A stretch of 51,289 nt of DNA, filler included, from Stramenopiles sp. TOSAG23-6 (taxonomy: Eukaryota), in NCBI GenBank assembly GCA_900128565.1. It is 2 parts of 2 records of this genome, joined end to end, with 100 filler letters (N's around TTAATTAATTAA, not from the genome) between each part and the next. Parts side by side here need not be neighbours in the genome. Positions count along the whole stretch, not along the records: positions 25,723 to 51,289 come from LT635995.1; 1 more part is not named here. The stretch is one strand, 5' to 3'. Positions 3,001-45,700 of the stretch are shown here, in pieces. The stretch's first letter is position 1. Every line of letters starts with the position of its first letter. Both the position numbers and the translations under genes were made by a program. The notes beneath the pieces were generated by a model. The model searched no databases. It worked only from the letters and a program-made list of their open reading frames with translations, and was not told where the DNA came from.

Positions 3001-6000
3001 TGTTACATCAATGGAAACAACACCGGATGTGTCAAATGAAGATGCGCCTGAAGAAATAGCAATATTTGCGCTGCTCTTAGATGATTGTGTTGCGATTGAA
3101 ATTTTACCCCCAATTGATGTTTCACCTTCTCCAGTTTCAATAGATATATTTCCACCAGAAGAATGATTTCCAGTAGTATTACCAGCAGATATATCCACAA
3201 CTCCGCCACCATTTCTTTTGGTATGACCAACTGATATAGATATTGATGAGTTGCTATTTAATAGTGAACTTTGACCAGAACGGAGTACTAGAGAACCAGA
3301 AGAACCTTTTGTGGCTGCACCACTATTTATCATAATTTTACTTGTGCTGCTAGAGCCTTCCGAACTTGAGACAATTATATCCCCACTTTTCAAAGAACTT
3401 GCACCACCGCGTATAAATAATTTACCCCCCGGTGCGTTCTGTTTACTACTACCTGATTCAACAATTATATTTGTTTCATTATTTACATTGTTGCTTTCAC
3501 TAGTACTACTATGGATACGTATATGTCCACTGTGAGATTCTTCGGATGCGCCTGTTGTAATACCAATAGATCCGCTACTTTGTTCTGATAAACCTGACTG
3601 AATTAATACATCTCCAGTGATCAGAGAAGACGATGCCGAAGTAAGGAGTATTTCCCCACTTTCTAATTTGCCAGTACCACTGAATAAGTCAATACTACCA
3701 CTTATATTATCAGAGGATCCTGCTGCAAATGAAACACTCCCACCCGAAGTTGTAGTTTCAGTACTTTTACCAACAATAAGTTCGATGGAATTTTCTTCTT
3801 TTCCTGCAGAACTTCCAGTGAAGACTGAAATATTTCCAGTTAATCCAGATATAGAAGTACCAGTAAATATTTTTACGGAGTTACTTTCTACAGATTCTGA
3901 TGTGAAAATGTCCAATTCGCCAGATGTACCCCAAATTTCAGCGTTAGTACTATGCCCTGATTGAATTCGAACAGCACCGTTTTCCTTTTCACTTGACCCA
4001 GAAGTTAATCTCACCAGCCCTCCATTACTTTGGTTTGAGTTACCTCCATTAATACTAACACTTGCAGAATCCTGAAATACGAAATTTCCATCTCCAGCAG
4101 CGATGAAAACTGTTCCGCCGTTATTTTCCTTTGAAGATCCACTCTGAAGAAATAATTTGCCACTTGTGGACCCAACATCCGTATGAATATCAACATCTGC
4201 TCCCTGAACAGTAAAGTTTCCATCAGATCCAGTTTGCTTTGGACTAGTTGACAAGCCCACAGATATTTTTATTGGTTTTCCAGCCCTATTAGATTCCCCT
4301 GTATTTAATAAGATATTTCCTGAATTTAATGTTGAACTGCCAGATTTCACCTCAACTATACCCGACTGACCTTCAGTACTAACACCAGTGGAAATACGCA
4401 CAATACCAGAGCTTCTATTCGCCTCGGGAGTATGTATACTAATATCACCACCATGAGCAGCATTCAATGTAGAGTTGCCACCCATTCCTTTAATTGATTC
4501 ACTTTGATTTTGTTTAATTGAATTTTCACCAGCTATTAAAGTTATATTATTGGCATTTACATTTGACATTCCAGATGAAAATGATATAGAGCCACCCAAT
4601 TTATTATTAGTAGATGACCCGTTACCAGTTGAAAATAGAACACCTCCAGATAATCCATTTAGCGCATTTCCCGTTTTTAACACAGCATCACCAGATGACA
4701 TACCCGAATGTGTGCCTAACGATACACCGCCACTGGGTAACATACCTGAGGACCCAGATGATATTGCAACATTACCATCCATTTTCCAATTTTTAATTTG
4801 ACCTATAGACTCTCCGCCATGAATGCGCACATTACCAGAGATTGCTCTGTTGTGAGCAACACCTGCAGATAAATGAATACTACCTGAATTTCCTGAAACA
4901 GATGTCCCTGAAATTACGTTTACACTTCCTGTAGCCGTGTCTTGGACTGAACCGCTGCCAATACGAATACTACCCGTACGCGAGCTAGTAGAAGAACTAA
5001 TAGAGACAACATCATTTTCAGAAATAAGGCCAACTCCTGCACCAATTCCATCTGATGAATTCCCAGCTGATATTTCTACAGCACCACCCAAGGTATCTAC
5101 TCCTACTTCATTTGATATCTGGGAAGATCCAGAAATATTCAGATTTCCGCCATCATTTTTTTCAGAAGACCCAGGTTTGAGCACAATACCCGAAGTATTT
5201 AATGTCATTTTACTATCACCCGTGGTAATATATATACCCCCAGCTATAGAATGTTGAGTATGATCTGACTCACTCGAGAACGTCACATTTCCAGATACCT
5301 CAAAACCGTCACCACTGGTGAGCTCAAGGGTTCCTCCTTGAGAAAGTGAAGAACTTCCTGTAATAACGTTAATATCAGAGCCTTTCAGAAATCCCATACC
5401 GCTTTTTATTTTCACAGAGCCACCTGAAGAGTTATTGGATGAACCTGACACAATATCAATAGAATTTGATGTTTCTAATTTGATATTTCCAGTATTCAAT
5501 GATGCATTTACAGATGATATAACTACATCACCAGTTTTTTCTGTGTTGCTCTTACCGGCTACTACAGATAAACCACCGCTAGTATTATCAACCGATGAAC
5601 CTATGCGAAATGTAATATTTGCTCCTTCAGTTGTAGAATTACCAGGTAATATAGCTATTTCTCCACTTTCAATAGCACTTTTTGTCTTGATGACAATATC
5701 GCCACTTTGTATTCCAGATTGGGTATTTATTGCAATAACACCTGAATTATTCTCATTATGAAATGTTTTTACGGCAACATTACCACTTTGTCCTGCTGTA
5801 GTACTTCTCAAGTTTATATTGCCTCCTTTTGAATCATTATCTATCCCACGACCACCATCAATTAAGACACTGATATCATCCATGTTTCCACTTGCTTTCA
5901 AAGAAAATGAACCACCAACACTTTTTTCGCCCGATTTACCGCTTATAAGTTCTATGTTACCTGTGCCTTCATCTAATGATGTTCCTGTGCCAATATGTAT

Positions 6001-25622: not shown

Positions 25623-25722
25623 NNNNNNNNNNNNNNNNNNNNNNNNNNNNNNNNNNNNNNNNNNNNTTAATTAATTAANNNNNNNNNNNNNNNNNNNNNN
25701 NNNNNNNNNNNNNNNNNNNNNN
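25623..25722. other. Artificial contig-joining spacer
   Basis: Exactly 44 N + TTAATTAATTAA (stops in all six frames) + 44 N = 100 bp. Confidence 0.95.
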
Positions 25723-25777
25723 TTTTGTACCTAACAAATTTAAGTTTTTTTTTTTCAAATATTTTTCCAAAATACAT
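25723..25777 (+). other. GT-AT family intron 1 (5' end truncated by contig edge)
   Basis: TTTTGTACCTAAC...ATATTTTTCCAAAATACAT, followed by an open frame that runs into ORF 25835-26308. An AG 4 nt further downstream cannot be excluded as the acceptor. Confidence 0.7.
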
Positions 25778-26308
25778 ATAGCTTTTGAAGGGGAAGTAGC
25801 AATAACCTCTAATAGTAATGAATCTAACCCTAATTTGAGAAAAAGTAGCTTGAAACGTCGTATTAGCGCGGTTCAAGATGCTGTCGGAGGATCACTTTCG
25901 AGTCCGATATTAGGTCCAGCCTCGCTAGCGAGAAGCCTTGCACAAATTGGAACGCCTGGCAATAGTGAAGGTAGTAAAAGCACTGAAGGTACGGAAGGTA
26001 GTGAACAAGAAAAAGATAATTTTATGCTGTCAGACAGTTCTACATCTAAAGATAAAATGGATGAAGCTTTACATATCCTTGGTAAGAAAAGAAAACATAT
26101 GCTTGAAGATGAATGTGCTAGTAGCCAACAAACTATTGGTGGAGACTTAGAGAAAACTCTTTCCCCTAGAAACAGTATGAAAAGATTAAAAAGTGATGAT
26201 ACCAATCATTCGTTAGGTACAAAATTTAGTCCTAAAAAATATTTATTTGAAAATAGCCCAACAAAGAAACCAAAACTAAGAAAGATGAGATCGTGGTCAA
26301 TTCCGTGA
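25778..26308 (+). CDS. Terminal exon of an unknown Ser/Lys-rich protein (partial)
   Basis: Open frame from the intron end (IAFEGEVAITSNSNESNPNLRKSSLKRR...) to TGA at 26308. No family recognised. Confidence 0.55.
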   Translation: MAFEGEVAITSNSNESNPNLRKSSLKRRISAVQDAVGGSLSSPILGPASLARSLAQIGTPGNSEGSKSTEGTEGSEQEKDNFMLSDSSTSKDKMDEALHILGKKRKHMLEDECASSQQTIGGDLEKTLSPRNSMKRLKSDDTNHSLGTKFSPKKYLFENSPTKKPKLRKMRSWSIP

Positions 26309-26621
26309 AATGTTTGCATGGATAAGCTTTCCAAGTACTCCAAGATGACCCTTCCGTTAATATTCAAGTAAATTGGAATATTTGTGACTGGCAGATTGTC
26401 CAAAATACATATATTGCTTTTTTATAGCTCCTTGATGACACCTGCATATATAATATAATCCGGATAAAGTCTTTAGTTAGAATTAAGAAACTACGACTTT
26501 TATTATAACAAAAAGCTCTACTTATTACGCTTCTTACTAGTAAATTAAAAAAAAAATAATAATTAAAAAACAAAATGAATCCGAATAAATTTATTTTTTA
26601 AAAAAAGGTGAAGATAAAGTC

Positions 26622-26724
26622 AGAATGTGTCATTTCACTCCGTTTACTATTGTTTTGCTTACTTTTGTAATGAAGAATGTGTCATTTCACTCCGTTTACT
26701 ATTGGTTTGCTTACTTTTGTAATG
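26622..26724. repeat. 52-bp tandem duplication in a convergent intergenic / 3' UTR region
   Basis: AGAATGTGTCATTTCACTCCGTTTACTATTGkTTTGCTTACTTTTGTAATG occurs twice, at 26622 and 26674. Confidence 0.9.
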
Positions 26725-26755
26725 TATTGACTTTGTTTTTATGAGTTTTATGAGT

Positions 26756-28748
26756 TCACTTGAACTTTCTTCTTTCAATTTCATTTACAGCAGATATTGC
26801 CGCTGCTGTATCTAATCTGTAATCGCTTTTATTTCCAATACCATTTTTTCCTTCTTGAGTTGCATCATTGTTAAAACTTTCATACACTGCTTCAATAGCA
26901 TCTGCAGTAGATGGTCGATAATCCGAATTTGTGAACTGATTTGTTCCATCTGTATGAGTCGTTGACGTAACATTGTTAAAATGCTGGTTTTCCATAAAAG
27001 CAGACCACAATGTGAAAAGAACATGGAGACCTTCGACAGTTCCGTTTCCTGGCCCTCCACCTTTTCTACTTGGGCTTTTGCCTCCATTTGATTTTCCATT
27101 TCGTTGATGTACCGGAATATCCAACAGTGCACATGCCATCCTACTCATTTGAGTCAAATCTAAATCAAGGTCAGCAAGTTTTGGAAATTTTGTTTTCACT
27201 AAAGTTTCTTCAAATTTTGCAGGCCATACTTGCATTAGTGTATCAATATCTGGCATTGGACCACTATAATGAACAGTTGGGCGTGGTTTAGTGCGATGCA
27301 TTTTTTCCACATTTTCTATCCATTGAGCAAGTTTCGCAGCACCTTCAGTATCTGCGCGTTCAATGGAATCGACGCGTAAGTCTTCCAATTGTTTTCTATG
27401 AGTTTTTGATTGAGAGCGCAGTTGCATGGATAGAACGGCAGAATCAGATTGTGCTGTCGCAGGTTCATCAAGTACACAAAATCCAGGTAATGCGCCTGTC
27501 AGACGTTTCCTCTCTTCTATAACAGTATTGGCTTCAACATCTCTAGGATTTCCTGAATTTGATGAAGATTTTCCCTCCTTAACCTTTTCCTCATCTCCAG
27601 ACTTATCTGATTGATCTTCTGTCAAAATTTGGGGTAGCCTTGGTTTGACAAAACAATCAATCTCTCCTATCGTTGGAATAAAATCTGGAACGAAACATTT
27701 GAGAGAAGATTCTAAAGCTACTTTTGGAGGCTTATACACCGTAATATATGAAAACAATTCTTTGATTTCAGCGGATACTTGAAGTTTTGCGTATGCTTCA
27801 GGGTTATATAAGAGACTTTTGTCAATTCCTGCATCATGACCCTTTTTTCCTTCGTTTTCATCGGATGAAGAGAGCGAGTCATCGGAAAGACCAGAAGATC
27901 CTGAAGTGGACGCAGATTCCGAGGAGATATGTATTGTGAAAAAAAACAAAATAAAAAATTGTTAGGTACAAAATTTGGTACGCAAAAAACTAAAATTAAA
28001 ATTCATGATGAAAACGTACATTTACACCTTGTCTCTTTTCTTTTTTACTTAATCCAGCCGACATTTTCAGTTTATTATCCAATTGACCAGATTTTACACG
28101 AAAATTGTTGGATCCACCTTTTGTGCTGATATTAGAATTATTTTTTTCACGAGAACCTAGTGGGGTCTCTACACTCATCATGCTTTCGGACATACTCCCA
28201 TCAAGAGACGCCGCTTCATCGTACTTATTATTTTTTATCTTTCGATTTCCGCCTTTACTCGATTTATCTCCTCCACTGAGACTACTACCACTAGAATGCT
28301 CATCATCGGAGGATGATATATGCTCCTTTCCTTCTCCTAATGAGCTCATACGCATACCAGTAGCGTTGGTTGCCATAGTGGAGGAAGATAATTCTAGAGC
28401 CTCATCAAAGTGTTGATTCCTAATAATTCCTCCTGTATCATTTTTACCTTCCATGCCAATACTATTTTTATTTCTTTTTGGAGAATTCATCGTATTCGTT
28501 GTAAGCATTGTCGATGAAGAAAGCTCAAGCGCTTCGTCATACTGTTGGTTTTGTACAGAAGTTGATTTGGTTTCAGCTATTTCCGGTTCAACTTTTGTTT
28601 TTGCTTCGGTAAAAGACTCCTCGAAACCGAATTCGTTGTCACTACTACCGCTACTGTCACTACTAAAGCCTAGCCCGCCACGATCGTTGACTCCAATAGG
28701 ATCATCACCTAATCCAGAGCTACTACTATCACTACTATCATCACTCAT
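26756..28748 (-). CDS. IFT46: Intraflagellar transport protein 46 (exons 28748-28020, 27928-26756; 633 aa)
   Basis: YNPEAYAKLQVSAEIKELFSYI, LKCFVPDFIPTIGEIDCFVK, VLDEPATAQSDSAVL, VHYSGPMPDIDTLMQVWP and LHVLFTLWSAFMENQHF match the IFT46 core. The N-terminus is acidic and Ser-rich. Confidence 0.92.
27929..28019 (-). other. GT-AT family intron 2 (91 nt)
   Basis: AAT|GTACGTTTTC...TTTTGTACCTAAC...TTCACAATACAT|ATC joins the two IFT46 ORFs in frame. Confidence 0.85.
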
Positions 28749-28964
28749 CTTTATAGTATAAGTATCAACAAACAAAAAAAACATATCCTTTCTCTCTTTT
28801 GAAAAGTAACCGACGGATCAAAAAATCGATTTTTCGTGTTTTTGTTGCCAGCATCGGCATCAATCCATCACGTGATCTTAGCTAGATCAGATTCTTTGCT
28901 GCTATATATATGCTTGCTTAGCAAGCATGACTTGAACCAAACGGTTATCTTTGTATATTGCTGA

Positions 28965-29826
28965 ATGATATTTCAAGGATTTGGTCGTCGACGCCTTTTT
29001 CACATTCTTTTCACAGCATTGAGTTCAGTGGTTATACTGATTTTCTTTGTGAGGGAACCAACTATAGAAACTTTACTTTATAAATCGCGTGAACTTCAGG
29101 GAGCTATGGCTGAAATAACTGAAGATGACAGTTATTGGAAAGCAACCGAGGAAATCATGAGCGCCCTCAAAACACAGGAAGCATTCTCTTATGGCGAAGG
29201 ATTGAATATGCTTGAGCATGCGCTTCAAGCTGCATTCAAGGCTAAACAAGCAGGAGAACCTAATGACGTTCAACTTGCATGCCTATGCCACGATGTTGGA
29301 AATTCACCACAAGCAAGAGCACATTGGGTTCATATAGGTAACGATGAACCTGAGTTGATAATTTCTAAAGCTGATACCTCTATTGGCTATCAAAATCATG
29401 ATATAATCGGAGGCTCATACTTAGCATCGCTAGGGTTTTCGATAGAAGTGTCTGGTGTACGTTTTCAAAATTGCCTTAATTTTTTTTTATACGAATTTTA
29501 AACTTAACAAAACATTTGACTTAAAATATTTTTTTACAATACCTGCGGCTAAGTTACACGTAGAAGCTAAAAGAGCACTTGTATTCATTGATAAGTCTTA
29601 TATGAAAAAACTCTCTCAAGCAAGCAAAGATACACTTATTGCGCAGGGAGGTCCCCTTAATTCAAATGAACTAGATGAATTTCTCAAAATGCCTGGAGCT
29701 AAAGTAGCTTTACGATTGAGGAAGTATGACGATCAAGGCAAAGATATAAATGGAGTTTCTATGAATTCTCTTGTATCTTTTAAGCAAAATATTTACGATC
29801 ATTTACGAAATCAAAGGACCAGTTGA
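28965..29826 (+). CDS. PhnZ/TmpB-like HD-domain diiron oxygenase or phosphohydrolase with an N-terminal membrane anchor (exons 28965-29456, 29545-29826; 257 aa)
   Basis: Motifs YGEGLNMLEHALQAA, CLCHDVG, NHDIIGG, LHVEAKR, LSQASKDTLIAQGGP and ALRLRKYDDQGK. Confidence 0.82.
29457..29544 (+). other. Family intron 3 (88 nt, GT...CT)
   Basis: GGT|GTACGTTTTC...AAACTTAAC...TTTTACAATACCT|GCG gives GFSIEVSGAAKLHVEAKR, with PhnZ-like spacing. An in-frame AG 9 nt later would shorten the helix by 3 aa. Confidence 0.7.
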
Positions 29827-29961
29827 AGAATGTTTTTTCTATATTTATTAATAAAACATATGAATTCCAAAATTTCTAAAAACGGCAACCTTAACCCTAA
29901 CCCTAACAATGTCCTACCATTTTTTGTTCGTCATTTTATTGCTATGTGCTACCTTCCCATA

Positions 29962-30039
29962 TAATATACAAATATATCATAATGTACCCTTCAGTGTGTA
30001 ATATACAAATATATCATAATGCACCCTTCAGTGTGTAAT
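29962..30039. repeat. 37-bp tandem duplication overlapping the transporter stop codon
   Basis: TAATATACAAATATATCATAATGyACCCTTCAGTGTG occurs twice, at 29962 and 29999. Confidence 0.9.
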
Positions 30040-31741
30040 AAGCCCCGACAATGCCGGAAAATGATCCAAAAAAGAGAACAAGTGCTGCAAAAATGAATTT
30101 TAAGGAGATGAAGTTTTCCTTTGGGTCGTAAAGTTTTAGATATGTGGCGGTGGGAAAGACAAAGGCTATGAAAGTACTACCTATTCCCCCAGTAAGTTGT
30201 AAAACTAATCCGAGTCCCTGACCATTACCTCCCATTTGAAGTGCTAAAATTGCAGTAGTTAAAGAACAGCCAAACATACACTGTGACGAGATAATTTTTA
30301 GATTTTTTTTGTTAGGTACAAAATTTTCATACAAAAAAACAATTGAAATGAATAATGAACACAAACATTATCGTGGTGAATAGTAGGTGCTGAAATAAAG
30401 GAAGATTTGAAGAATCAATCTTTTCATTTGCATCATGTATTGTGAAAAAATATTTTTTCTTTTTTTTGGACAAAAATCGTTAAGTACGGAATTTCGTATG
30501 AAAAACAAATGATAAAAAATTCAACTTTGAAAACTTACATTATTACTATTATTTGACACAATTCCATCGTGAAGCAGTTGTTGTGTAGGTAGATTATCAC
30601 ATGCAAAATTTTGATGACAGAATCGTTTCCATATCGTATAAACAGTATGTCTAATTACGAAAAAATCCAAAGGAAACGTTAGAAACATTGTCGAGGAAAG
30701 AACAAGTCTAGTACAATTTGCCAAAATATCATGATTGCCCAAATTATCAAGAATATTAGGCAATGCTTTATAACCAAATGCAAAGAAACCAAACACTCCA
30801 AGTAATGCAGAAGCTAAGAATGCACCACTTACCCCACCCAGAGACACACATGCCCATCGTTGAGGTGTTGGATTTTTAAGTGTATTGAAGACAAAGAAAG
30901 AATATTGTTGACAACCGAAAGCAAAGGCAATAGTACCAATTGCAGGAAGCCATTGGTCAGATATTGAAAAAAGGATATTTGGATTTTGTTGTAAGGCTGA
31001 TTTTCCAGATAAATTTAGATCTATGAAATTGTACACAATAGCTGTAGTCATAGTTAAGACGGCAACTAAAGACAAAAACGACCATTTTTCTAAATGTGAG
31101 ACGTCGCATGTATTGCGAAAAAATAAGTCAATTTTTTTTCGTTAGGTACGAAATTTTCTATAAAAAAATAAATGTAGATAAAAATTCAATTATGAAAACA
31201 TACGATACAGACAAAGAGGTAAAAGAATTAGTACAGTGAGCAGTACAGTCAAGACGACTTTGTCACCTAGTGGCTCAAATACCGAAGCAATTCCCCAATG
31301 TTGTAGTACACGGGGGACTGTTTCAGCAATGATTAGAATATAGGCGACACAAGCACCAAAAGAATTTGCAATTTGAAACACTGAAAGAGAGTAAAATCCG
31401 AGAGTCCCAAAAGCTGCTTCACACAACCCTTCATATGTCGAAACACCATTTACCCGACCAAGTTGTATCATCAATGTAACAGTATAATGTGTTAGAATTG
31501 CAACAAGTAATAATAAACTAGTGCCAAGAGCAAAACCGGCCTGTGACATTGCAAAAGGAAGACCGATAATACCAGCTCCGACTATGCCATTTGCAAGGTT
31601 AAATGTAGTTCCTGGTAAACCACTCATTTGCTCCTTCATTTCACAAACTCTAGAGCTCGCAATTGCTGGTGGGGTAGTCGCTTGCCGAGCAGTTGGATCT
31701 GCAACTTGTTCATATTGATGAGGGGTCATTGAAGAATGCAC
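30014..31741 (-). CDS. Amino acid transporter, Aa_trans / SLC38-like (exons 31741-31204, 31107-30539, 30434-30367, 30275-30014; 478 aa)
   Basis: Motifs FNLANGIVGAGIIGLPFAM, YEGLCEAAFG, LPLCLYRDVSHL, IAFAFGCQ, FLTFPLDFFVIR and LVLQLTGGIGSTFIAFVFP, plus multiple TM helices. Confidence 0.9.
30276..30366 (-). other. GT-AT family intron 4 (91 nt)
   Basis: AT|GTTTGTG...TTTTGTACCTAAC...GTCACAGTGTAT|G gives TIMFGCS. An alternative canonical GT..CAG pairing is also in frame. Confidence 0.65.
30435..30538 (-). other. GT-AT family intron 5 (104 nt)
   Basis: AAT|GTAAGTTTTC...CCGTACTTAAC...TTTTCACAATACAT|GAT opens a 68-nt exon (DANEKIDSSNLPLFQHLLFTTI). Confidence 0.85.
31108..31203 (-). other. GT-AT family intron 6 (96 nt)
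   Basis: TAT C|GTATGTTTTC...TTTCGTACCTAAC...TTCGCAATACAT|GC GAC restores PLCLY-R-DVSHL. Shifting both ends 2 nt upstream creates TAA. Confidence 0.9.
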
Positions 31742-32021
31742 TTATAAAAGAACAAGTCGAAGAGCAGATTTACTTAATACTAGTATACTTCGGAGAGGAG
31801 CAACGGAAGCAACTTCTCAAACTTGTCTTCTTTGACTTCTAAAAAGCAGCTGAGCGTTATAAATTCGGAAATTGGAAATATATTTTCATACAAAAAATTG
31901 GTACAGACTATAATATACAGACAGAAAGATTTTTTTGACCTCGACTGGACAACAGGAGGGAAAAGAGAAGAAGTGTCGGATATTTGTGTGCCTCGGAAAC
32001 GGGTGTTTGGATTTCTTCAAG

Positions 32022-34236
32022 ATGCGGCCAATTGTAGTGTTATTTTTGTACCTGACCACTGCTATTACTGCTGAAATAATAGTTACACCGAAAGTTGATG
32101 AAAAAACTAAATTAGCTGAAAAATCTGAAGTACTTCACGCGAATACAGAAATTTCCATTGACCCAATGCGTAACGACAACCCAAAAAGCGCTCGCTACGC
32201 TTATGCCACAATTCACTACGAAGGTACGAATGCCGATGACTTTTACTTGCTAGGTGTTCGCACTATGCATCAGAGTATTAAGCGGAGTGGCACGAAATAT
32301 CCTTTTGTAGTTTTGGTTTCCCCTGAAGTTCGTCAATCAACCCGCGACACCTTGATTAGTGACGGAGCAATTCTTAAGGATGTGGAAAATGTTTTTAATC
32401 CTTTTACCGGGCATGTCAAAAAGCATTTTACAAAGACACTCAATAAAATTCATTTGTGGGGTATGACTGAGTATGACAGAGTTGTTTACCTTGATGCTGA
32501 TAATATTGTTTTGGAAAACGCTGACGAATTGTTTCAATGTGGTCACTTCTGTGCTGTGTACATGAACCCTATTAACTTTCATACTGGTCTTCTTGTACTA
32601 AAGCCAGATAAAACTATACTTACTCAAATGTTAGATGACCTTAGACGACCTTCAACGGCTTCATATGATGGGGCAGACCAAGGTTTTTTGTCACATTTTT
32701 TTGGTTTCAAACAAATGCAGGAGTCGCCTGTCTTTGTCCCGATGGACGTACAGCCAATCGCGGCGAAGTCGTTATCTGAGGGGCCATCTAGCGATCTTGT
32801 ACTATCCGAAGCAGCGATCATCATGGATTCAAACTTTGTCAGTCCGAGATATGAAGCCCCACGTATGCGTCTTCCTCCTTGGTACAACCTTAATTCTTTT
32901 TGGTTCTACGAAAAAGGCCACTGGGGACATTGGAAAAATCCGGAAAGTGGTCGCTTTTATCAAAAAACAATTCCAGGCTTAACACTTTGTTGGCCTGTGC
33001 CTTCTTTTCTCAAGCCATGGTTTTGGAGTTCTCATATTTTTATGGATCATTTGTGGGATTTATGGAATGATGTTCGTATGAAAATAGATCATCCTTATAA
33101 TACTTTTTCGTTTCTATTTTCGTGCGGTTTTAGTGTTTTCGTATACATCGCTGTAGATGTAGTGATTCGAGTTTTGGCTTACAACCGCCAAGAAAATAAT
33201 GTCGAATATTTTAACCTCCCCGTAACCGACTTAAAAGGTTCTTCATCATCTCTAAGCAGCAGACGGCGTAAGTTATCGCACGAACTTAAAGATATGAAAT
33301 CGAAACGTAGGAAGAGACTTGGGCTGGTGGAGAGAGTTTCGAAGACATGTGGTATGCATCCTGCTCTGCATAATCTTTTTTTGAATGCTGTGCCAACCGT
33401 TGTTCTGACTTTTGTTGGCGCACTTTTTCTTACAAATGCGTTAATATCGCCAATAGCACCTCCACAACTAGCATGGCCTCTTTGGATATTTATCGATTCC
33501 GCCTGTTTTTGTAGTGTTGTAAATATTTGCAGGTACAAACTTCATGTACGTTTTCATCATTCATTTTTTATGTACTTTATTTTTTTGTACCAAATTTTGT
33601 ACCTAACAAACAATTAAAAGTATTTGGCGTATTTTTTTTCAATACATGGAACTGTAAATGCTTCAATATTTCGTTCATTTGCGATGTTAATTCCTGACAT
33701 ATTGATACATGGGGTATATTGGTTTATTTCATACACACAATGTACATTTTCATCATTAACTTTAAAAGTTTGTTTTTCGTTAAAAAAAAACAATTTTCCC
33801 TAACAAAAAAATGTTTTCTAACAAAAAAAAAATATTTTTCACATGAAAGGGTATCCTAGAATGACAGTTCATTTTACAAAACTTGCTTTATTATGTGTAT
33901 GGGTAAATGTTCTCCTTGGTGCCAGAGTAGTACGTTTTCAAATTTATTTTATTTTTCCTTTTTGTTTTTCATACGGAATGTAGTACTTAACAAAAAAACG
34001 AATTAGCATATTTTTTCTAAATACATGTCACATTTTTTTCCGTGGTGTCGGTCGATCGAAAAGTTATTAAATCTCGAAAGAGAACAACGTCTGGGACAAG
34101 TCCCTTAGATTTACAACTTACACATGAAAGAACGAGTAGTAATAGACTTTCCTCGTCTAGATTGAGGAATTTATTATCTCAGGGGGAGGATAGTGGCTCT
34201 GGAACGCTCAAGGTGACTAGACAACAATCTGGGTAA
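32022..34236 (+). CDS. Glycosyltransferase family 8 (glycogenin-like, resembling plant PGSIP7/8) with a signal peptide and C-terminal TM helices (exons 32022-33545, 33648-33741, 33850-33929, 34027-34236; 635 aa)
   Basis: Motifs AYATIHY, TLNKIHLW, YDRVVYLDAD (DxD), DELFQCGHFCAVYMNPINFHTGLLVLKP, YDGADQGFL and KPWFW. Confidence 0.85.
33546..33647 (+). other. GT-AT family intron 7 (102 nt)
   Basis: CAT|GTACGTTTTC...TTTTGTACCTAAC...TTTTCAATACAT|GGA. An in-frame AG at 33620 is a canonical alternative. Confidence 0.7.
33742..33849 (+). other. Family intron 8 (108 nt), ending in AG at the family position
   Basis: T|GTACATTTTC...CCCTAAC...ATATTTTTCACATGAAAG|GG gives TQWYPRM. Using the internal CAT as acceptor would give TGA. 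Confidence 0.75.
33930..34026 (+). other. GT-AT family intron 9 (97 nt)
   Basis: GTA|GTACGTTTTC...GTACTTAAC...TTTTCTAAATACAT|GTC is in frame with ORF 34042-34236. Confidence 0.82.
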
Positions 34237-34361
34237 AGAAAATATTTTACATACAGAGAAAACGTACTTAAAATAAATGATTTACAAAAATACATTTTTC
34301 TGACGCTGTTTGATTGTATTAATAGTGTTATACTGTTCTTTTATTAATATATAATAACCTG

Positions 34362-34863
34362 TCAAGATGTTTTGATGAAAAGAAGATGAAGAGATACGGC
34401 TATACAACCAAATGCTATGACAGGACTACAACGCTCTCCAACTCTCGCAGCTTTCCAAAATATTCCCATGGGGCCTGTGCGATTGTCATCAAGGAGAGAT
34501 GGCCGAATTGTGTGTATGAAAGTACACATGCATATAAAAAGTAAAAGTATTGTAAGGGTCCCTGCGAAATCAAAAATTGCTGACTATGCCGTGTGAAAGA
34601 TTAAAAGTGCCAAAAATAAATACAATGAACACTTTACAAAGAAATATGTTGGGTGATAATACAAAGATGTCATCAAAACTAGTTTCATTCAAAAGTCGTG
34701 AACGAACATGCCACTCACATGTGTCAAACGCAGTGAGGAGTTGAGCGTTTTCAGCCATTGAAAAAATAAGTGAGTGAATAGTTTCAAACAGTGGACTCTA
34801 CCGATGAAAACTATACCATTTCATAATGTCTCAGTACTTTATTTTTGAAGCTAAACTTACCAT
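34362..34863 (-). CDS. TMEM167: Protein kish (exons 34863-34861 = ATG only, 34583-34362; 74 aa); absent from the ORF track
   Basis: M|SAIFDFAGTLTILLLFICMCTFIHTIRPSLLDDNRTGPMGIFWKAARVGERCSPVIAFGCIAVSLHLLFIKTS matches kish/TMEM167 (SAIFNF...LLLICTC...GIFWKCARIGERxSP). Confidence 0.9.
34584..34860 (-). other. Canonical GT-AG spliceosomal intron (277 nt) directly after the kish start codon
   Basis: ATG|GTAAGT...GGCATAG|TCA GCA. It lacks the family GTACCTAAC block and is far longer than the family introns. Confidence 0.82.
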
Positions 34864-35198
34864 ATTCAATTTATGTACAATTTGTTAATTCGAATACACA
34901 AGAGAATTTTTTGCCCGTTATCAGTTCTTCTTTTACAATAGTAGCTATACCTGTTGTTTCGCGTCTTGGATCTAACTCAAGACTCAAGAGTCAAGACATC
35001 AGTCAATAATTCCGATAATTCAATCTTTAGGTTAGGGTTAGGGTTTAGCTGAAAATTTAAACTGGAAAAGTTTCGTTCCACTGTTATGTTTTTAAACTAA
35101 ACGGTATCAATAGTACCTGTATCATCCTCCTGATATAAAGAAATTTTCTATTGTATTTATTGTCCAACTAGTGTGCAGAAAGGCAAACTATATATGAA

Positions 35199-35990
35199 AT
35201 GGACGATTTCGATTATGATTTGTACCAAGCTCAGCGAAATATTGAATATTGCTATCCAGAAAGCTTTCTTCAAAGTTTGGCAACAAGAGTGACGAATACC
35301 ACTTATCGGCAGCTTTCATTAAAAGAGTGTAGCGAAGCAAATTATTTTACACGATGCGTTTATTTTTCAATGATGGTTGTAGTGACTACTGTAATTGCAT
35401 GTCAAGTATTCATATTATTAATAGTTTTCGCTGGATATAGGATATTTCCGGTAAAACTTTGGAAAATACAAAGTACTAAAGAAAAAAAGAGCAAACTTTC
35501 AATAAGATCTTCTAAATGGGCAAAAGCAAGCACTGAAGAAAAAAAGAGCAAAGTTCTGCATCACGTTAACCCTGGGAAACTTAAGCGAAGACAAGTTGAA
35601 CAAAAGAAGGAAATGGCAAAAGCAAGCACTGAAGAAAAAAAGAGCAAAGTTCTGCATCACGTTAAACCTGGGAAACTTAAGCGAAGACAAGTTGAACAAA
35701 AGAAGGAAATGGCTACCACCGGAGAAGGAAAAAGAGTTATATCCACGGGTGGTAAAAGATTTATATCTCATGAAACTACAACAATTTCCCGTTCACGCCA
35801 GCCAAGATCTAATACTGAACAAAAAAAGGAAATGGCTACCACCGGAGAAGGAAAAAGAGTTATATCCACGGGTGGTAAAAGATTTATATCTCATGAAACT
35901 ATAACAATTTCCCGTTCACGCCAGCCAAGATCTAATACTGCTAACAAAACAGAGCCTACAAAATTAAGGAGAGCAAGACATTACCTCTAA
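35199..35990 (+). CDS. Orphan single-TM protein with a Lys-rich, tandemly duplicated tail
   Basis: 263-aa ORF with a hydrophobic segment (MMVVVTTVIACQVFILLIVFAGY). Its 32-aa and 41-aa in-frame duplications both preserve the frame. Confidence 0.65.
   Translation: MDDFDYDLYQAQRNIEYCYPESFLQSLATRVTNTTYRQLSLKECSEANYFTRCVYFSMMVVVTTVIACQVFILLIVFAGYRIFPVKLWKIQSTKEKKSKLSIRSSKWAKASTEEKKSKVLHHVNPGKLKRRQVEQKKEMAKASTEEKKSKVLHHVKPGKLKRRQVEQKKEMATTGEGKRVISTGGKRFISHETTTISRSRQPRSNTEQKKEMATTGEGKRVISTGGKRFISHETITISRSRQPRSNTANKTEPTKLRRARHYL
35519..35940 (+). repeat. Two consecutive near-perfect tandem duplications (96-bp and 123-bp periods)
   Basis: Units start at 35519/35615 and at 35694/35817. Confidence 0.92.
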
Positions 35991-36088
35991 ATAAACTAAT
36001 AAAATTCATTGAAAAACAGAAATTTATTGAAATACAAACTTTGAAGACAAAACTCAGGGGTAGATAATACAGATGTAATGGCCTCATT

Positions 36089-37503
36089 TCAGTTGTCCAG
36101 CTTTCTCTTGTATATCGCTTTTTGTTCTCTTACAGTTTTGAGGATTGCATTATCTCTTTTCACTGGTACCAGTGTCAAATACTTCTCAATTTCATTTTTG
36201 GTGAGTACGGAATGAGTTGATGTTGCTGTTTCTTTTTGTGCAACTGGTTCTCCCTCATTCTCAGTAGGAAGATAAAACATGGAAGCCCATCTCAAATATG
36301 GATCTCCTGATCTTTGTCCAACACGTCGTAGTGGATGCATCAAATTTGTCATTGCATTTAAAAAAATGTCTCCAAGAAGTGCGGTTTTTACACCTTCCAA
36401 TTGCTCTTGATTAGAAATTGTTGATTTAGTATTAAAAATACCTGACTTTGACTTAAATGATTTTTCTATCCATGTTTTAAACGTTGTTGGTGTAAACCCT
36501 TTAAATACCCACTGGATTTGCCGTGGTCCATACTTTTTTACTTCAGATTGTTCGATATAGTTTAGGCATTCTAATATAGTCACTCCAAATGTCCACCAAT
36601 CCCAACCGTGCGCATATGCTAAATTTTTTTTTGACTCATTGTACAGTTTCTTGAAGAATGTATTGTGAAACAATATTCTAAAATTTGATGCTTATGTTAG
36701 GTACAAAATTTGGTACAAAAAAATAAATTCAGTTTTGAAAACGTACAGTGTGATTTCGATTTATCCGATTTGTTACGTAGATTTTCATAAGCTATTACAC
36801 CTTCAGGTGGTAGCATATGAAAAGTACCTTTAGGTTCTAAAATATATTTAGACGTTTGCGAGAATAACTCAAAATCAATTAAAAAGGCTCTTTTATGATC
36901 TTTGCTCAGTACAACATTCTCTGGCTTTAAATCACGTACGGTTATGCCAATATAATGTAAACATTTGACTGCTATCGCAATTTGTGGTAATATGTTGAAG
37001 ATAATATTTTCAATATCCCTCGAGGAAGAAGTAATATACGTAAATAAATCACCCCCTGAATGATATTCAGTGAACATAATTGGTGTTGTTTTGCCCTTAG
37101 CTGCATAGCTATAATCTTCCTCAGGTGTTGTGGCAAGTCGAACTACATGAGGACACTTTTCAGCTTCACGCAACAGCGCGATCTCTTTCAACATCTTTAT
37201 GACTCTATCAAGCCTACGTTCCTCTGTATCACCAGACCTAAAAATAATTTGTTTCATTGCTACATATTTTGATTCAGTTTTGTCATACATAAGATCAACT
37301 GTGCCATGCGAACCTTTCATGATGTGTTTTACATGGGTCACATCCAAACCTAATCGTCGTCCGTGAATGTATTTTCGATTGTATTTTTCGTCGGTCAGTT
37401 TGTTTAGCCCTTTAATGAAAGTAAATCTTTTATCAAAATCTATATGACCATGTACACAACATGCCATGCCAAAGGTAAATAAAAGTAAAATACCCGGAAT
37501 CAT
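36089..37503 (-). CDS. Divergent Ser/Thr protein kinase with a predicted signal peptide (exons 37503-36747, 36657-36089; 441 aa)
   Basis: Motifs KGSHGTV, VAMK, EYHSGGDLF, VRDLKPENV, IDFE, GTFHMLPPE and DWWTFG. N-terminus MIPGILLLFTFGMACCVHG. Confidence 0.85.
36658..36746 (-). other. GT-AT family intron 10 (89 nt)
   Basis: CAC T|GTACGTTTTC...TTTTGTACCTAAC...TTTCACAATACAT|TC joins kinase subdomains VIII and IX in frame. Confidence 0.85.
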
Positions 37504-37975
37504 TGGTAAGAATACCTTTGAGGAACAGGATGCACTATCTTTAAATTGTTTCAGCTATTTGTACGTACTAGAAATCGACTAGAAAAAGAGATTTATTGAA
37601 TCAACCGATTGAGTGGTCGAGAAGACTTAGTGCTGACTTTTTTTCCGGCTTTTTCTTGTTTTATGCAACAATAGCAGCTTTGTTCCAATATCATTTCTTC
37701 TTCTTTCTGGCCACAATGTCATCATATACACAGTTTGTTCTTGTATGCTTTCCAAGCTTAGAACAGATGGCGAATTTCCACCCGATATACTTTTTGTTTC
37801 AAAATGTGCAGGTGCTGAACTTCGTGAACTTCATACCTCGAATCTTTGAGGAACAATCGTACTATCCTCATTTTTTTTCGTCCGGATTGTGTTACTAAAA
37901 CCTCCATGATTTCGTGCGTATATTCTATGTTGTAATAATTTCCTTTCATTTTTGACCCAAATTCATCTTTTGGTA

Positions 37976-40638
37976 TTAAATTTTGGTTATTTTCTTTGAT
38001 ATCCTAGGCTGCTTTTTAGATTTGTTTTTTTTATTCTTCAGTAGTGTTGATCTATTGTTGTGTTTTCTTCTGCTGTGTTTGTTCTTTCCTTTCCTGATAT
38101 TTATTGAACATTTTCGCATACCGTTGATCTTTTCTTTCCTGATATCTATTGAACATTTTCGCATACCGTGTTTATTTTGTCGACCTTCAATATCTGCTTG
38201 AAGAGAATAATTATTGTTCAGAAATATATTTGGTGTTAATGCTCTTCGTACTCCATTATTATCTCGAATACCATCAAGCATTGCAAGCTTTTGCCGTCCT
38301 TTCACACTCTTCAAACCTAACTTGCTACGCTGTTCTTTCGAATACGACGTAGATATTGGGCGATTCCGAAATGAATTTAACTCAAGTCCCCCAGATAAGG
38401 AAAATAAACTTCTCTTTCTTTGTTTATATGCAACTTCCCAAGCATATTCATCTTTATTTTTTAGATTTCTATCTCTTTTTGATTTAGATTTTTGTTTCTC
38501 AAAAGATAATGAAGAGGTAATACTGCTAAATGCATGTAATTCCTTTTTCATGATCAAGCGTGAGTAATTAATTTTCCCACGACTTGCAATTATACGTTGA
38601 TTATTTATAGCTTGTTTACTCTGAATTCTTAGGGCGCGACTGAACACACCTCCAGGTTCGACTGACATTGGTCTATGACCTAAATTATTACGCAATTCTG
38701 ACGCTTTTATGTCTTTAATGAACGGAAGCTTTGCCAACATAAATCGAATAAGCACCTCATCGCCAGAAGCAAAACAGTAGTGTAAAGGAGTATTTCCGTC
38801 ATCATCTCTGGAGTAAGCATCAACTTTATACTTTAACAACTCACTAACTACAAGTAATTTGCCTGATGCAGCTGCGAGACTCAAAGCGCAACGTCCATGA
38901 ATATGTATGATGAAAAAANATTTNAAAAAAAAAANCTAANTTNGTTAGGTACAAAATTTCGTACGAAAAAACATTTGGACAAAAAATTAAAATGAAAACG
39001 TACATCTCGACTATTCACAAGTTTTACGACATTTCTATTGAACTTTTGCAAAGTATCATTGCGGTGTATATTCTCGTCTAGGTCTTTTCTGTTCGCATTA
39101 GCAATCGCAAATTGAACTGCGGATAAATCGCCCTTGATACAAGACTTAAGAAAAGATTGCGTTGGTTTAATTATAGGCTTGCTTCTATGAGTACATGACC
39201 GGGATTTTCCAAATGATTTTCGCCAAGCATTCCAGTTAGCTGCATGATTATTTCTGGACTCTGCAGAAGCCTTTATGCACTGCATCTTAGATAAAATTAT
39301 GCTACGTAATATAGGCTGTCTTCTATTGAATACTGAAGAAATTGCAGAGACGTTTGCTGTTGCGCCTGATGCCCTCGATGCCAATGCTGCTAGCCTTGCA
39401 ACTTGAGCTGCAATAGCATTCGCCTCCCTACATCGTGTTTCTTCCGAAGAAACTGTCTTGCGTATTGCCGTATTCAGATGAAATAATTTTCTATATTTTG
39501 CTTTAATAGGTTCTGGGTCAGAGACAACTACTTTAGCTCTTTTTTTTTTCTTTTGATTAATTCTCCTAGCATACTTTTTCTTATTCTCATCTCTTTTCTT
39601 TTGCATAAAAATAAGCAATTCACGCCGTTTGCGCAAGCGTGTTATTCTATCTTTTCTTGCGATAGCAATCCACATACGTGCAAAACTTCCAAGCATAATT
39701 GCGGCATCTTTCATCTCGTCAGTATGCAAAGATGATAGCTCATCGTCTGAAAGAGGTGGAGCAAAAGAAAGCGACATTTTTTCCAAATGATGCGATTTTG
39801 TCCAAAATCGTCTGTTTTTTTGTAGTCTCTTTATATCACCAAATAGGTATTTGTCTACAGCAATTGAATCGATATGGGTAAGAAAGTATCCTTTTCTAAC
39901 GCCAGCAAGCTGTACTGGAGACTTTCTGTCAGTCAATGTAAATCCATCACAGATTGCGCCTATTTGAAAACCCCCCAATAGAGTTGCAGGTTTAAGTCGA
40001 ACAATGGAGCGAGTATTACTATCATCAGGGCTTATATGGATACAAATTGGTTTTACTAAACAAGGGCGCCGGGTATAATAACCACGATATATTTTTTGTA
40101 TTTTAGTAGCACTTGGATCATACACAACATTTCTTTTCACTTTTTGAAAGTGTTTTCTACCGAACGTGCCTCGCACAAGACATTGAATTTTTACGGCAGC
40201 ATCTATTCGAAGTTTCTGCTTCTGTGCTACGAGTATATCTCTTGCCTTTTGGCAAGCCTCGCTTGCTTGTTTCTTTGCTAGTATTGCTGTCTGATTATTC
40301 CTTTTCTTTGTGTGGGAATCCTGATTTTTCAACTTTTCTGACCTGATTCGCTGAAGTTCTTTTTTTCTGGTAGCTTTCGCCTTTTCCATTGCTTCAATGC
40401 GAGCATTTTCCTTTTCTCTCAACAATTCAGCTTCGCGCTCCTTTTTCTTCAATGCCAAGGCTGTTGCTTTAGCAGATATTTCTTCCATCTTTTTTTGTTT
40501 TGCTATGATAGCCGCTTGCTTTTCCGCAGCTCTCTGCGCTACAGCATTCTCAATGGCGTCTTTCGCAGCAGCTTTTACATCCATGTAGCTTCCTCCATTA
40601 CCTAATAATTCCTGTGCTTCATCGTTATTAAAAGGCAT
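37976..40638 (-). CDS. Coiled-coil / IQ-motif / PDZ-like / ankyrin-repeat protein (exons 40638-39004, 38902-37976; 853 aa)
   Basis: IQ motifs AVKIQCLVRGTFGRK and ATKIQKIYRGYYTRR. Ankyrin repeats VNSRDIHGRCALSLAAASG (spliced) and SRDDDGNTPLHYC. Confidence 0.8.
38903..39003 (-). other. GT-AT family intron 11 (101 nt)
   Basis: GAT|GTACGTTTTC...GTACGAAATTTTGTACCTAAC...TTCATCATACAT|ATT CAT GGA restores ankyrin D-x-x-G-x-x-A-L spacing. The next two AGs are out of frame. Confidence 0.9.
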
Positions 40639-42707: not shown

Positions 42708-45700
42708 TTAAATTTCCTCCTCTGCACTTTCTTCAACATAATCTGATGCATATAGAGCTCTATTTAATTGAGGCTTCCACATCTCAGGAAATTCTGGTAA
42801 TGGAAAAGTCGCCCAGGCATATTTTGTGAAAAAATATTTTTTTTGTTTTGTAAAATTCGTTAGATACAAAATTTACTACAAAAAAAAAAAAGTAAAAAAT
42901 TCAATTTTGAAAACGTACACATTTTGCCTTTTCAAATGAATCCAATGGTATGGGTTTGCAAAACCAAATATCGCCACCACCATGCTGCCTTTCATTTCTA
43001 AATCCTAAATTGTATTCTTTTCTATCACCATCTTGATATAAGCAAGTATGAGTTTTTCTTGCACTGTTGTACGCAACTAAAATACATTCGTATCGACGAG
43101 TTTTCCATTTTGTACTCAAAAAACGACCAATAATCGATTCATGTTTTGTGAAAAAATATTTTTTTTGGTAAAAAACAATTGTTAGGTACAAAATCCCGTA
43201 TGAAAAAAAAAAATGAAATCCATAATAAAAACGTACAGGTTCATCGTCAGAGTCATATTCCATTTCCTTGCATACTTCAAATGATATTTTTTCTCTTTCA
43301 AGCATCTTATTATTATCATCCTTATCACAAATATCATTACTATTAACTACGGAATTACATTTTCGTTCAGCTATATCCAACATGACTAATTTGTCATGTA
43401 ACGCCGCACAATCATTTCTTAAGAAACGCTTGTCATCATGACCATGATTGTAGTTATAAAAACTCGAACTGGCTCCATTCATAGAGGTCATCTGACTTGG
43501 CTTCCAGTCTCGTTTCATTAATAAATCTTTCCCATTTGCCACTGCAGCATCATAGCGACCTGGATCATTTGCACGAAATACAGGCATTGGTGATGTTCCT
43601 TGAGTATTTGGTCGGTCAAAATACATATCAAATCTAAACTTTTTACAAAACTGTTTCGATTCTATACGAAAATCTTTAGCTTTTGACGATGAAAGCCATG
43701 ATGCTATTATAAAATTTCTCTTGGCGAGTCGCATCACATATTCTAGACAAAACTCAGTACACCGTAAAATATTACTATGTGAAGTTGATGCCTCCAAAAC
43801 ATCCGGCATTAAGTCATCAATACATCGTCGTAGAAATGAATTCGGTTTCTTTCTACTATTAGAAATGTCTGCAGGTTTTAACATTAAATCAATTAATCTA
43901 AAAACACCCTTCACCTGATCATGAAAGCTTTCTTTGATTAGATTACAGCAATTCTTTACAAAAATATTTATAATTTTTGGGTTCCCCGTTGTGGTACTTT
44001 CAACTTCACTCATACGATATGATAAAGACTTGATAATTTTAGCCACTAGATCAACAATAAGCGTTTCAGTCTCTGAAGATCCAAGACGATCATCAACAAT
44101 AATCAACTTTGAAAAAGATTTCACCGCATTTGGGGAGGAGAGTAACACAAAGTCAGCAAGGTCTACTATATCAATCAGAGTGCTAAGAGTTCGAAGAATT
44201 GGTGTGACTTTTTTACAGTTAATTTGGGCAAAAGTATGACCAGAACAAATTTCATTCAATCTCTCCAGAGCCTGTGATATTATGCCACTGCATGTAACCG
44301 GTATTGGATTCTTATAGTCCATATATAAATTATCATTATTAGGAAGAGTTAACAAATACTTTCGTATTGCAGTGCCAGAAGGACTAGAAACTCCGGACAG
44401 CTCCGACAGAAGTGACCACGTGAACATCCACGGTTGTGTTGGAAGTAAAGATCGATTCCAAGATTTTTCAATAATACGACAAAATACAGGCCGTTTTGAT
44501 AGAGATTCTTCATATGTATCGTGTAGTGTTTTAATAGTCTTTGAATCGCAAATCGCTACTTCTTCTGAGTCTTGAACACTGCCATCATATGGAACTGTAA
44601 ATGAAAGCTGAGCCGCTGGTTTATTTGGACAACGAGATTTTGGACAACGGTTATTTGAAATATAACCATCTGTAAAATATTTTATGACCCATTCGCCCTC
44701 ACAGTCTGGAGACCAGTATTGTCCAAACCTCACAACAATTGTTGTTGTTTCATCGATACCAGAGAGTCCGTCTTTTTTACTATTTGTACCAAATTCTGTA
44801 CCAACATTTTCTGTACTGTCTATATCGTGAGAGACGACGTGGGAACTCAATATAGCCTCGTAACAACGCCCTCTGTTACCCGCACGATCGTAAGGTAATT
44901 CATCAGTATCATCACTAGATTTGTACAATCCGATCCAACTTCCATGTATTTTGGAAAAATATTTCAAAAAAAAATCGTTAGGTACAAAATTCGGTACAAA
45001 AAAAAAATCAAATTTTAAAAAAAATAAAACATACATTTATAAAGGTCCCAGGTATCTTCACCGTAACTGTAAAATCCTCATTGACATTAACTGCCGATAC
45101 ACTAAGCTTTGCAACAGGATACGGAGGGAGCAATAATGCAGAATTTGAGGCTAGCTCATCACTAGACATGGCACGAGCTTGAGTTTTCATTGCAAGTACA
45201 ATCAATTCTTTAGCGATTTGCTGTCGAATAACTCTTACGGATCGACCCACAATATTTTCTGACCCTGAAGCAAACACGAGATATTTCATTACTTCAGAGT
45301 TTTTGCACAACCAATCAAGTAACCATGAAGAAGCTGGAGGAGCAAGAAGCAAACGTTTCAATGCACACAAAACATCAGGCATTAGTTCTTCTCGTGTTGA
45401 CGTATCCGTAGAAGTGACAAAAGAACCGAACAAAAACGAAACTCCCACGCGTGTTGCCAATTCTAATGATGAAGTTATATCAGACTTCTCCGACTTCTTC
45501 ATCACGGTGCTGCTGATATCACTGGCAATTGAACTAAAAAGAGACGTTAAAAACTTATAGTATTCTTCGTCTTGGAGTACTTGATTTTTCCATAATTCCA
45601 TATTCGACTCCATAATTTCTGTCATTATCGCAGGTGGAACCCTACCTCTCTGCAATTGCTGTATTCGACGTTCAGCATTAGCAACTGAAAGTTTTCGAGC

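Follow-up and report, generated by a model that had tools for sequence, protein, structure and literature searches.

A high-copy family of GT...AT introns and a U1 arm that fits its donor in Stramenopiles sp. TOSAG23-6

Intron 6 of an amino-acid transporter gene in Stramenopiles sp. TOSAG23-6 belongs to a family of look-alike inserts that start with GT and mostly end with AT, and the U1 gene predicted in the same assembly carries a pairing arm that fits the donor of this family. We regard it as quite probable that intron 6 and its relatives are one multiplied element, removed from GT to AT by the U2-type spliceosome. According to this explanation, all of them would be copies of a single short, recently multiplied element, which the major (U2-type) spliceosome would excise between GT and a constant point that lies two bases beyond ...AATAC, mostly after AT. 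The cut at GT would be set by U1 together with the standard ACAGAGA box of U6, CTAAC would be paired by U2, the 3' end would be delivered by long U tracts, and the first G of the intron would dock a terminal U instead of a G, as proposed for the HAU sites of yeast.

Materials and methods

The window, that is, the whole stretch of DNA that was analysed, comprises 51,289 nt of Stramenopiles sp. TOSAG23-6 (GCA_900128565.1), of which positions 25,723-51,289 are LT635995.1. Its other part contains a Gly/Ser-rich repeat frame of more than 8,300 codons (1-25670, minus strand), which is open at the left end of the window and has no family copies inside. Family copies were collected from the window and the first 10 kb of each of 80 of the 6,236 contigs (851 kb). 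This sample gave 344 core matches, of which 158 copies were kept (both ends above threshold, duplicates removed) and 186 were discarded for weak ends or duplication. The end models omitted both flanking dinucleotides, one directly ahead of GT and the other at the very end of the intron. The frame test was applied to the 125 of the 158 copies that had clean flanks and recorded whether a frame stayed open through the joint; cuts that differ by 3 or 6 nt look alike in it (114-121 of 125 copies at those moves). Ten seawater metatranscriptome runs from three studies, each with small parts of the region, served as the source of RNA, and contigs of four of them were placed on 25730-38910 at 90% likeness, a stretch with nine whole copies.

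Intron 6 and its host gene

The relevant features of the transporter gene are as follows (a slash marks a splice border):

31204..31729, minus strand: Aa_trans exon 1 (amino-acid transporter), Pfam PF01490 positions 8-145
31196..31206, minus strand: 5' splice-site region of intron 6, ATC/GTATGTTT, which pairs with the U1 arm
31108..31203, minus strand: intron 6, a 96-nt family copy, GT...AT, with exon TC before and GC after, GTATGTTTTC ... CGCAATACAT
31141..31149, minus strand: branch-point-like motif of intron 6, GTACCTAAC
30539..31107, minus strand: Aa_trans exon 2, Pfam PF01490 positions 145-315
30435..30538, minus strand: family copy, AT/GT...AT, 104 nt, located within an unconserved loop
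30276..30366, minus strand: family copy, AT/GT...AT, 91 nt
30014..30275, minus strand: final Aa_trans exon, Pfam PF01490 positions 310-406

The exon before intron 6 ends ...CTG TAT C at 31204 on the minus strand and the next one opens GC GAC, and the match to PF01490 stops at profile position 145 before the intron and restarts at 145 after it. A retained intron 6 introduces an in-frame stop, and its branch A is probably at 31142. The initial annotation had placed the borders at GT...AT and excluded an AT-AC reading from the codons formed here, and its arithmetic was reproduced in full: a cut shifted by -2, the AT-AC cut, starts with TC and makes TAA, a shift of -1 gives Cys and GT..AT gives Tyr-Arg-Asp with the expected Arg, whereas the first AG past the branch motif lies 18 nt downstream and yields YQKW with six residues lost. 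The alignment with orthologues that it proposed as a check agreed, as YR[DN]xSxLEKWS was found in 8 of 8 homologues with zero gaps at the junction. Its view that the protein fixes the register held in one direction only: shifts of -1 and -2 are excluded, but shifts of +1 to +3 fit as well, the first giving an identical mRNA, the second (AT..GC) YRD, and the third YRN, which occurs in 4 of the 8 homologues. As far as the alignment goes, homology at intron 6 fixes the length removed and excludes leftward shifts only.

None of the RNA contigs of the four runs placed on 25730-38910 bridges intron 6. A protein search for the spliced product across it had as its sole match the unspliced, truncated form, a public Logan protein (97% identical) that ends YRMFS inside the intron and that illustrates how gene callers truncate such genes. 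This ending implies that a second contig has the intron 6 insert at the identical place.

Sequence, number and ends of the intron family

About 20 look-alike inserts lie within the gene-dense half of the window. Their layout is GTAYGTTTT, a U-rich stretch, TTYGTACCTAAC, a second U tract, a terminal motif of 8 bases (type CACAATAC) and two further bases. The 13-nt core has 7,547 exact matches in the 21-Mb assembly compared with one for a control, a count that is somewhat too high for distinct loci because mirror-image and duplicated contigs (C2, C4, C13 and C14 of G000) point to assembly redundancy; N-flanked palindromes at 25623-25722 of the window point the same way. The branch motif CTAAC is found 33-60 nt upstream of the intron end, although its presence is not independent, since the copies were located by it. 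In some copies (contig L017, plus strand at about 2900-3100 and minus strand at about 4300) the core motif is repeated in tandem, which results in several branch-like motifs per intron.

Start and end differ in how uniform they are. The GT start was found in 154 of the 158 copies, a figure that is partly built in as the 5' end model included GT itself, and GTA at the start (143 copies) and TAC at the end (125) both fall within the end models as well. The last dinucleotide was AT in 127 copies, followed by AG (10), TT (8), GT (6), AC (3), TG (2), AA (1) and CT (1). The final base was T in 142 copies, G in 12 and C or A in 4, and the intron ended with CAT or TAT in 125. On the exon side, AT preceded GT in 102 copies (background frequency of AT, 0.099); 32 of the 56 copies without it nonetheless ended with AT. 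Other copies of the window to which we refer, and one ordinary intron, are:

29457..29544, plus strand: family copy GT/GT...CT, a non-AT end, with an in-frame AG 9 nt downstream
33546..33647, plus strand: family copy with CATG on both sides, register ambiguous; skipped in RNA in two runs of one sample
33742..33849, plus strand: family-like copy, GT..AG, with AG at the usual place of AT; skipped in RNA
33930..34026, plus strand: family copy with TA before GT, ending with AT (intron 9 of the initial annotation); skipped in RNA in one contig of one run
34584..34860, minus strand: ordinary GT-AG intron, not a family member; its skipping in RNA is a positive control for spliced mRNA
36658..36746, minus strand: family copy CT/GT...AT in a protein kinase gene
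42819..42918, minus strand: family copy GT/GT...AT
43141..43236, minus strand: family copy CT/GT...AT

Introns 9, 10, 13 and 14 had been put forward as copies that lack AT before GT (TA, CT, GT and CT, respectively) and yet end with AT, and all four do. The broader idea that copies always end with AT applies to 127 of 158, and others differ, for example 29457-29544 (CT) and 33742-33849 (AG). AT is thus favoured as the end without being a constant component of the repeat.

The frame test bears on both orientation and length. The sense joint kept an open frame in 121 of 125 copies, and only 33-51 stayed open when the 3' cut was moved by 1, 2, 4 or 5 nt, 23 when the copy was left unspliced and 32 in the antisense orientation. 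On the basis of this test, the copies lie in the sense orientation and must be removed at exactly the family length. Use of the first downstream AG retained the frame in 42 of 111 copies, as against 108 at the family end; a downstream AG was in frame in 27 of 111 copies and an inner AG in 12 of 37.

RNA joints

The RNA contigs skipped three of the nine whole copies, and intron 6 is not one of the three. The joint 33542>33645, seen in two runs of one sample, permits five registers, AT..AC among them. By contrast, the joint 33929>34027 (one contig from one run, depth 3.8, related strain) is compatible solely with GT..AT, TA..TG or AC..GT. This joint crosses intron 9, one of the introns at which sequencing of cDNA had been proposed; it agrees with GT..AT as expected there, without singling it out from the two other registers. 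A third joint, 33741>33850, is in the same contig, reads as GT..AG (or +1) and keeps the upstream AT in the exon. An AT-AC cut is excluded by the last two joints, and the three joints combined make a single frame of 634 residues. The ordinary GT-AG intron at 34584-34860 was skipped in the same RNA runs. It belongs to a small membrane-protein gene (34362-34863, minus strand) whose first exon is ATG alone and which we take to resemble Kish/TMEM167. Joints 25766>31142, 27950>36694 and 35606>35826 connect repeat copies and were set aside.

It should be noted that these joints are stronger evidence for the borders than for splicing, because they come from low-depth single contigs of a related strain with no matching DNA run. 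An allele without the insert would give the same joined contig, and where a G follows the intron, RNA cannot separate GT..AT from TA..TG. Of the four runs, only X3 was not poly(A)-selected; in it, contigs matching the family reached summed depths of hundreds to 2,000 in bins of the window that contain family copies, against 1-6 for exons. RNA left unspliced, introns after their excision, or DNA contributed by thousands of loci could account for this.

The possibility that the copies are not spliced at all has to be considered at this point. They might be a small transposon that is polymorphic or eliminated from DNA, with the joined RNA coming from alleles or somatic DNA that lack it. The arrangement AT/GTA...TAC/AT does resemble an excisable unit, a matching DNA run is lacking for the related strains that gave the joints, and element-bearing contigs are plentiful in the RNA runs. 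We nevertheless find this very improbable, as orientation matters (121 of 125 frames open in sense, 32 in antisense), which DNA excision would not require, the U1 match and the branch motif lie on the same strand, the 7,547 exact cores would leave thousands of genes broken, and intron 6 is in place on the second contig.

Slightly less credit is due to the view that the cut is made at GT but a nearby AG serves as acceptor, which at intron 6 would be the one 18 nt downstream. Its use there keeps the frame, 10 of the 158 copies end with AG, one of them was seen in RNA, and the same runs contain a spliced GT-AG intron of the ordinary kind. On the other hand, use of this AG would cost six residues that are present in 8 of 8 homologues, in-frame downstream AGs are not enriched (27 of 111), and the joint 33929>34027 is not at an AG. 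Likewise, the copy at 30276-30366 has a CAG 5 nt ahead of its AT end whose use would cause a frameshift and a truncated protein. We regard a nearby AG as very unlikely to be the acceptor.

U1 and the other spliceosomal RNAs

The U1 gene was predicted by the Rfam model (E 7.5e-12) with 54.1 bits, below the gathering score of 69.5. Its arm, aligned in register with the model, is AAACGUACAUG and is changed at positions 2, 5 and 9, which face intron position +7, intron position +4 and the last exon base. Among the 158 copies, the bases facing these changes were T at +7 in 157, C or T at +4 in 155 and T as the last exon base in 136, and the three changes complement CAT/GTAYGTTT in the GT register. 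The chance that three changes would fit is 1/27 to 4/27 if any change were allowed. Mean pairing reached 9.1 of 11 Watson-Crick pairs at the GT register compared with at most 3.8 at the other shifts from -3 to +3, and the organism's arm outpaired the consensus arm at 156 of 158 sites; at the donor of intron 6 it forms 7 Watson-Crick pairs and one G-U pair, and the Rfam consensus arm forms 6. The donor of the ordinary intron in the 34362-34863 gene pairs about equally with both (7 pairs with the changed arm, 8 with the standard one). The fit of the U1 arm to CAT/GT thus gives independent support for the cut at GT, and it offers an explanation for the frequency of AT before GT.

No second U1 was found by family search, by DNA search or by an Rfam scan of the 24 places in the assembly that carry the standard arm (a control pattern occurs at 21). 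Scans of metagenomes with snRNA motifs for the U1 of relatives gave zero matches. A family element inserted backward was considered as the source of the arm and rejected, as the two resemble each other over no more than about 9 bases and 23 nt separate U1 from U2.

U5, U2, U1 and U4 lie head to tail in one cluster (L004:9-645; G000:C1146) with spacers of 2, 23 and 5 nt, and this tight arrangement suggests that they may be made as one precursor transcript. The branch arm of U2 (GUAGUA), loop I of U5 and the ACAGAGA box of U6 are all standard. U6 lies apart from the cluster (L003:953-1056, minus strand) and has an insertion and changes directly before the intact ACAGAGA box, in the part lying along intron positions beyond +6. 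Neither U12 nor U6atac had a match in the assembly, which is incomplete, and the control genomes gave none either.

These data also bear on the choice between GT...AT and the two remaining placements of the cut. The first is that the copies are AT-AC introns, of U12 or U2 type, cut two bases to the left. AT..AC can be read in 94 of the 158 copies and the joint 33542>33645 is compatible with it, but intron 6 would start with TC and make a stop, joints 33929>34027 and 33741>33850 rule it out at their copies, AT is missing in 56 of 158 copies, and the RTATCC start of U12-type introns occurs in 0 of 158. With the pairing peak of U1 at GT in addition, the preference of the initial annotation for GT...AT over AT-AC is well borne out, and we give the AT-AC alternative almost no weight. 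The second is that the length is correct and the cut lies further right (TA..TG, or AT..GC at intron 6), made by a shifted spliceosome or another enzyme. At intron 6 the protein stays acceptable with a shift of +1, +2 or +3. In the 83 of 158 copies that are followed by G, a shift of +1 leaves the mRNA unchanged, and both informative RNA joints are compatible with it. However, the ends are most uniform at the unshifted register (GT..AT in 123 of 158 copies, TA..TG in 69 and any +2 pair in at most 18), U1 pairing is at its maximum there, and +2 is excluded by the joint 33741>33850. A rightward cut is thus about as unlikely as a nearby AG acceptor, and GT...AT remains the favoured register.

Spliceosomal proteins

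The core of Prp8 aligns over human positions 1163-1811 with the most conserved blocks unchanged; it appears to be as in human, so the cause of AT acceptance is not visible there. There is one divergent U2AF2-like gene (L104:667-2628, minus strand), whose match to human U2AF65 is weak (E 4e-16) and whose product has two RRM1-like domains ahead of the last domain, and a duplication of U2AF was not seen in the assembly. U2AF1 was not found among the 15 zf-CCCH matches, and Prp18 had zero matches, in an assembly that also misses two of nine control genes. The only match of PF08799 is in a frame of 516 residues, which was taken for Prp4 by its size. Seven of the nine control genes were present (Slu7, Cwc15, Isy1, Prp38, FAM32A, Prp8 and the U2AF2-like gene); Yju2 and Luc7 were not found, which may reflect the incompleteness of the assembly. 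Luc7 contacts the exon side of the U1 duplex. Because two of the nine control genes are missing too, the non-detection of U2AF1 and Prp18 is a lead only.

Origin of the terminal AT

The initial annotation had assigned the AT to the intron's 3' end. This assignment is correct for splicing, in which the AT leaves together with the intron, and at intron 6 it is correct for origin too. In many copies, however, the terminal pair repeats the last two exon bases in the manner of a 2-bp duplication. The flanking dinucleotides were equal in 109 of 158 copies and unequal in 49, intron 6 included. Matched flanks other than AT were found in 14 copies (TT 6, GT 5, AC 2, CT 1) compared with 1.45 expected, the maximum in 50,000 permutations being 7. 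This excess is the signature of an element GTA...TAC that duplicates 2 bp of its target, so that the terminal AT is in part duplicated target sequence. Around the AT target, the base before was C in 49 and A in 40 of the 158 copies, and the base after was G in 83 and T in 24.

With regard to the unequal copies, silent drift of an exon AT was examined as the cause and found no support. Turning the exon side to AT would be silent in only 4 of 29 cases, which is not above the random share of 0.20 (p 0.49), and at intron 6 an exon AT makes a stop within the conserved Tyr-Arg. Since a drifted exon AT should be silent, and given the stop at intron 6, it is the intron side and not the exon side that departs from the target in copies with another pair before GT...AT. 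The exon ended with C or A in 17 copies, and the intron end kept that base in only two of them. Divergence was slightly greater in the unequal copies than in AT/AT copies (p 0.03) and not greater than in matched non-AT copies (p 0.15). In a piggyBac-like route, letters of the donor flank are said to substitute for a mismatched target on one side.

We therefore lean, by a small measure, towards the view that the element is a DNA transposon of small size (GTA...TAC) whose insertion duplicates two target bases, in most cases AT. For non-AT targets, the intron-side copy would then have become AT or AG, either at insertion or later by selection, with the exon codon kept. The terminal inverted repeats amount to 3 bases only, and the intron folded no better than shuffled sequences (z -1.19). 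A search for an autonomous partner in one transposase family (PF13359) gave two distinct elements, neither with the ends of the family. A PIF/Harbinger-like transposon (L111:502-3610; G000:C2432) has two genes, inverted ends of 28 nt and a transposase (Plant_tran, DDE_Tnp_4) that seems intact, and a partial family copy lies inside it, right after its second gene. This two-gene element was rejected as the source of the transposase of the family, as its ends differ.

Comparison with known systems

We class the family as introner-derived, non-canonical U2-type introns. It fits neither introners nor the introns of Fritillaria as these are described in the texts available, because introners end with AG and Fritillaria introns mostly start with AG and keep U1. 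Our literature survey, to which most subscription journals were beyond scope, found no report of such a GT-AT family with a matching U1.

AT is the commonest 3' end in Fritillaria according to the available text, with 34% in F. borealis and 44% in F. pellucida (PMC13326754). YAY precedes the 5' site and closes the intron in both systems (here CAT/GT...CAT), and the major spliceosome is involved there, as it probably is here (PMC13326754); the transposon origin with TIRs and TSDs that is outlined elsewhere (PMC11282704) may be shared too. As far as that account of F. borealis extends, its main classes start with AG (AG/AC and AG/AT) and are diverse, the 5' end of U1 is strictly kept and the U2AF subunits are duplicated, whereas here a single family starts with GT and the U1 arm is changed (PMC13326754). 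The resemblance to the introners of Micromonas pusilla and Aureococcus lies in thousands of look-alike short introns and in an element that brings the donor while the duplicated target gives the acceptor, so that removal restores the exon (PMC11282704). In Micromonas the duplications described are 3 bp and yield AG, but here they are 2 bp and yield AT or other NT ends (PMC11282704). Unlike those introners as described, the present family has inverted repeats of only 3 bases and unequal flanks in 49 of 158 copies (about a third).

An altered U1 arm that suits an atypical donor has been described in Entamoeba and Mastigamoeba balamuthi, the U1 of Mastigamoeba sharing the ACGUAC core and that of Entamoeba the extra A facing +7 (10.1101/2022.06.08.495308). 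In the portion of that report available to us, neither a change opposite the last exon base nor an acceptor other than AG is mentioned (10.1101/2022.06.08.495308); here, in contrast, U1 position 9 is changed as well, so that AT/GT is read instead of AG/GT, and the genome is full of a repeat that targets AT. As for acceptors, yeast without Prp18 uses HAU sites behind strong poly(U) tracts, and it was proposed that G+1 fits U-1 and clashes with C or A, as far as the accessible sections show (PMC10711555). The order of last bases in our family (T > G >> C, A) is the order of non-AG ends in yeast, and the rarity with which exon ends C or A are kept at the intron end (2 of 17) fits this proposal; however, non-AG ends in yeast appear there as minor errors of a mutant, and here they are the main end (PMC10711555).

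Amoebophrya, another marine protist, likewise has repeated non-canonical introns with direct repeats across their borders (PMC7789003). In the parts of that report at hand, its ends vary greatly, its inverted repeats measure 8-20 nt and a U1 is apparently absent, whereas here the ends are uniform and U1 is present and fitted (PMC7789003). A 2-bp AT target duplication is also a property of ISL2EU DNA transposons, but their target is given as A/AT/T, and here the flanks favour C (49 of 158) and G (83 of 158) (PMC4482050, available in part). The two DDE_Tnp_4 elements of the assembly lack the family ends.

Implications for the evolution of splicing

The AG of the intron end and the pairing arm of U1 are among the most conserved features of gene expression. 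Known cases bend them separately, with AT ends in fritillariids (U1 unchanged) and altered U1 arms in Entamoeba and Mastigamoeba, and here both occur together. What is new is the two RNA joints that exclude AT-AC, the U1 arm that matches the donor of the family and the two-part account of the terminal AT. Moreover, the AT ends and the U1 change are tied to one high-copy family, and what the changed U1 faces is precisely the pair of bases duplicated by the element. The combination suggests a mutual adjustment between the splicing machinery and an intron family as it spread.

Two questions become testable in this organism. One is whether bursts of introners drive change of the spliceosome or exploit it. 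The other is which proteins enforce AG, for which the yeast work predicts loss or change of Prp18 or U2AF1. A bolder scenario, which we put forward tentatively and hold to be doubtful at present, is that an AT-targeting transposon rewrote the splicing code at both ends, with the single U1 coming to read CAT/GT in place of CAG/GT, the AG-checking factors U2AF1 and Prp18 lost or disarmed, and CAT becoming the default acceptor. If true, a spliceosome found in nature would have exchanged the AG rule for another one genome-wide, with its catalytic core unchanged, and CAT would be located by its distance from the U tract.
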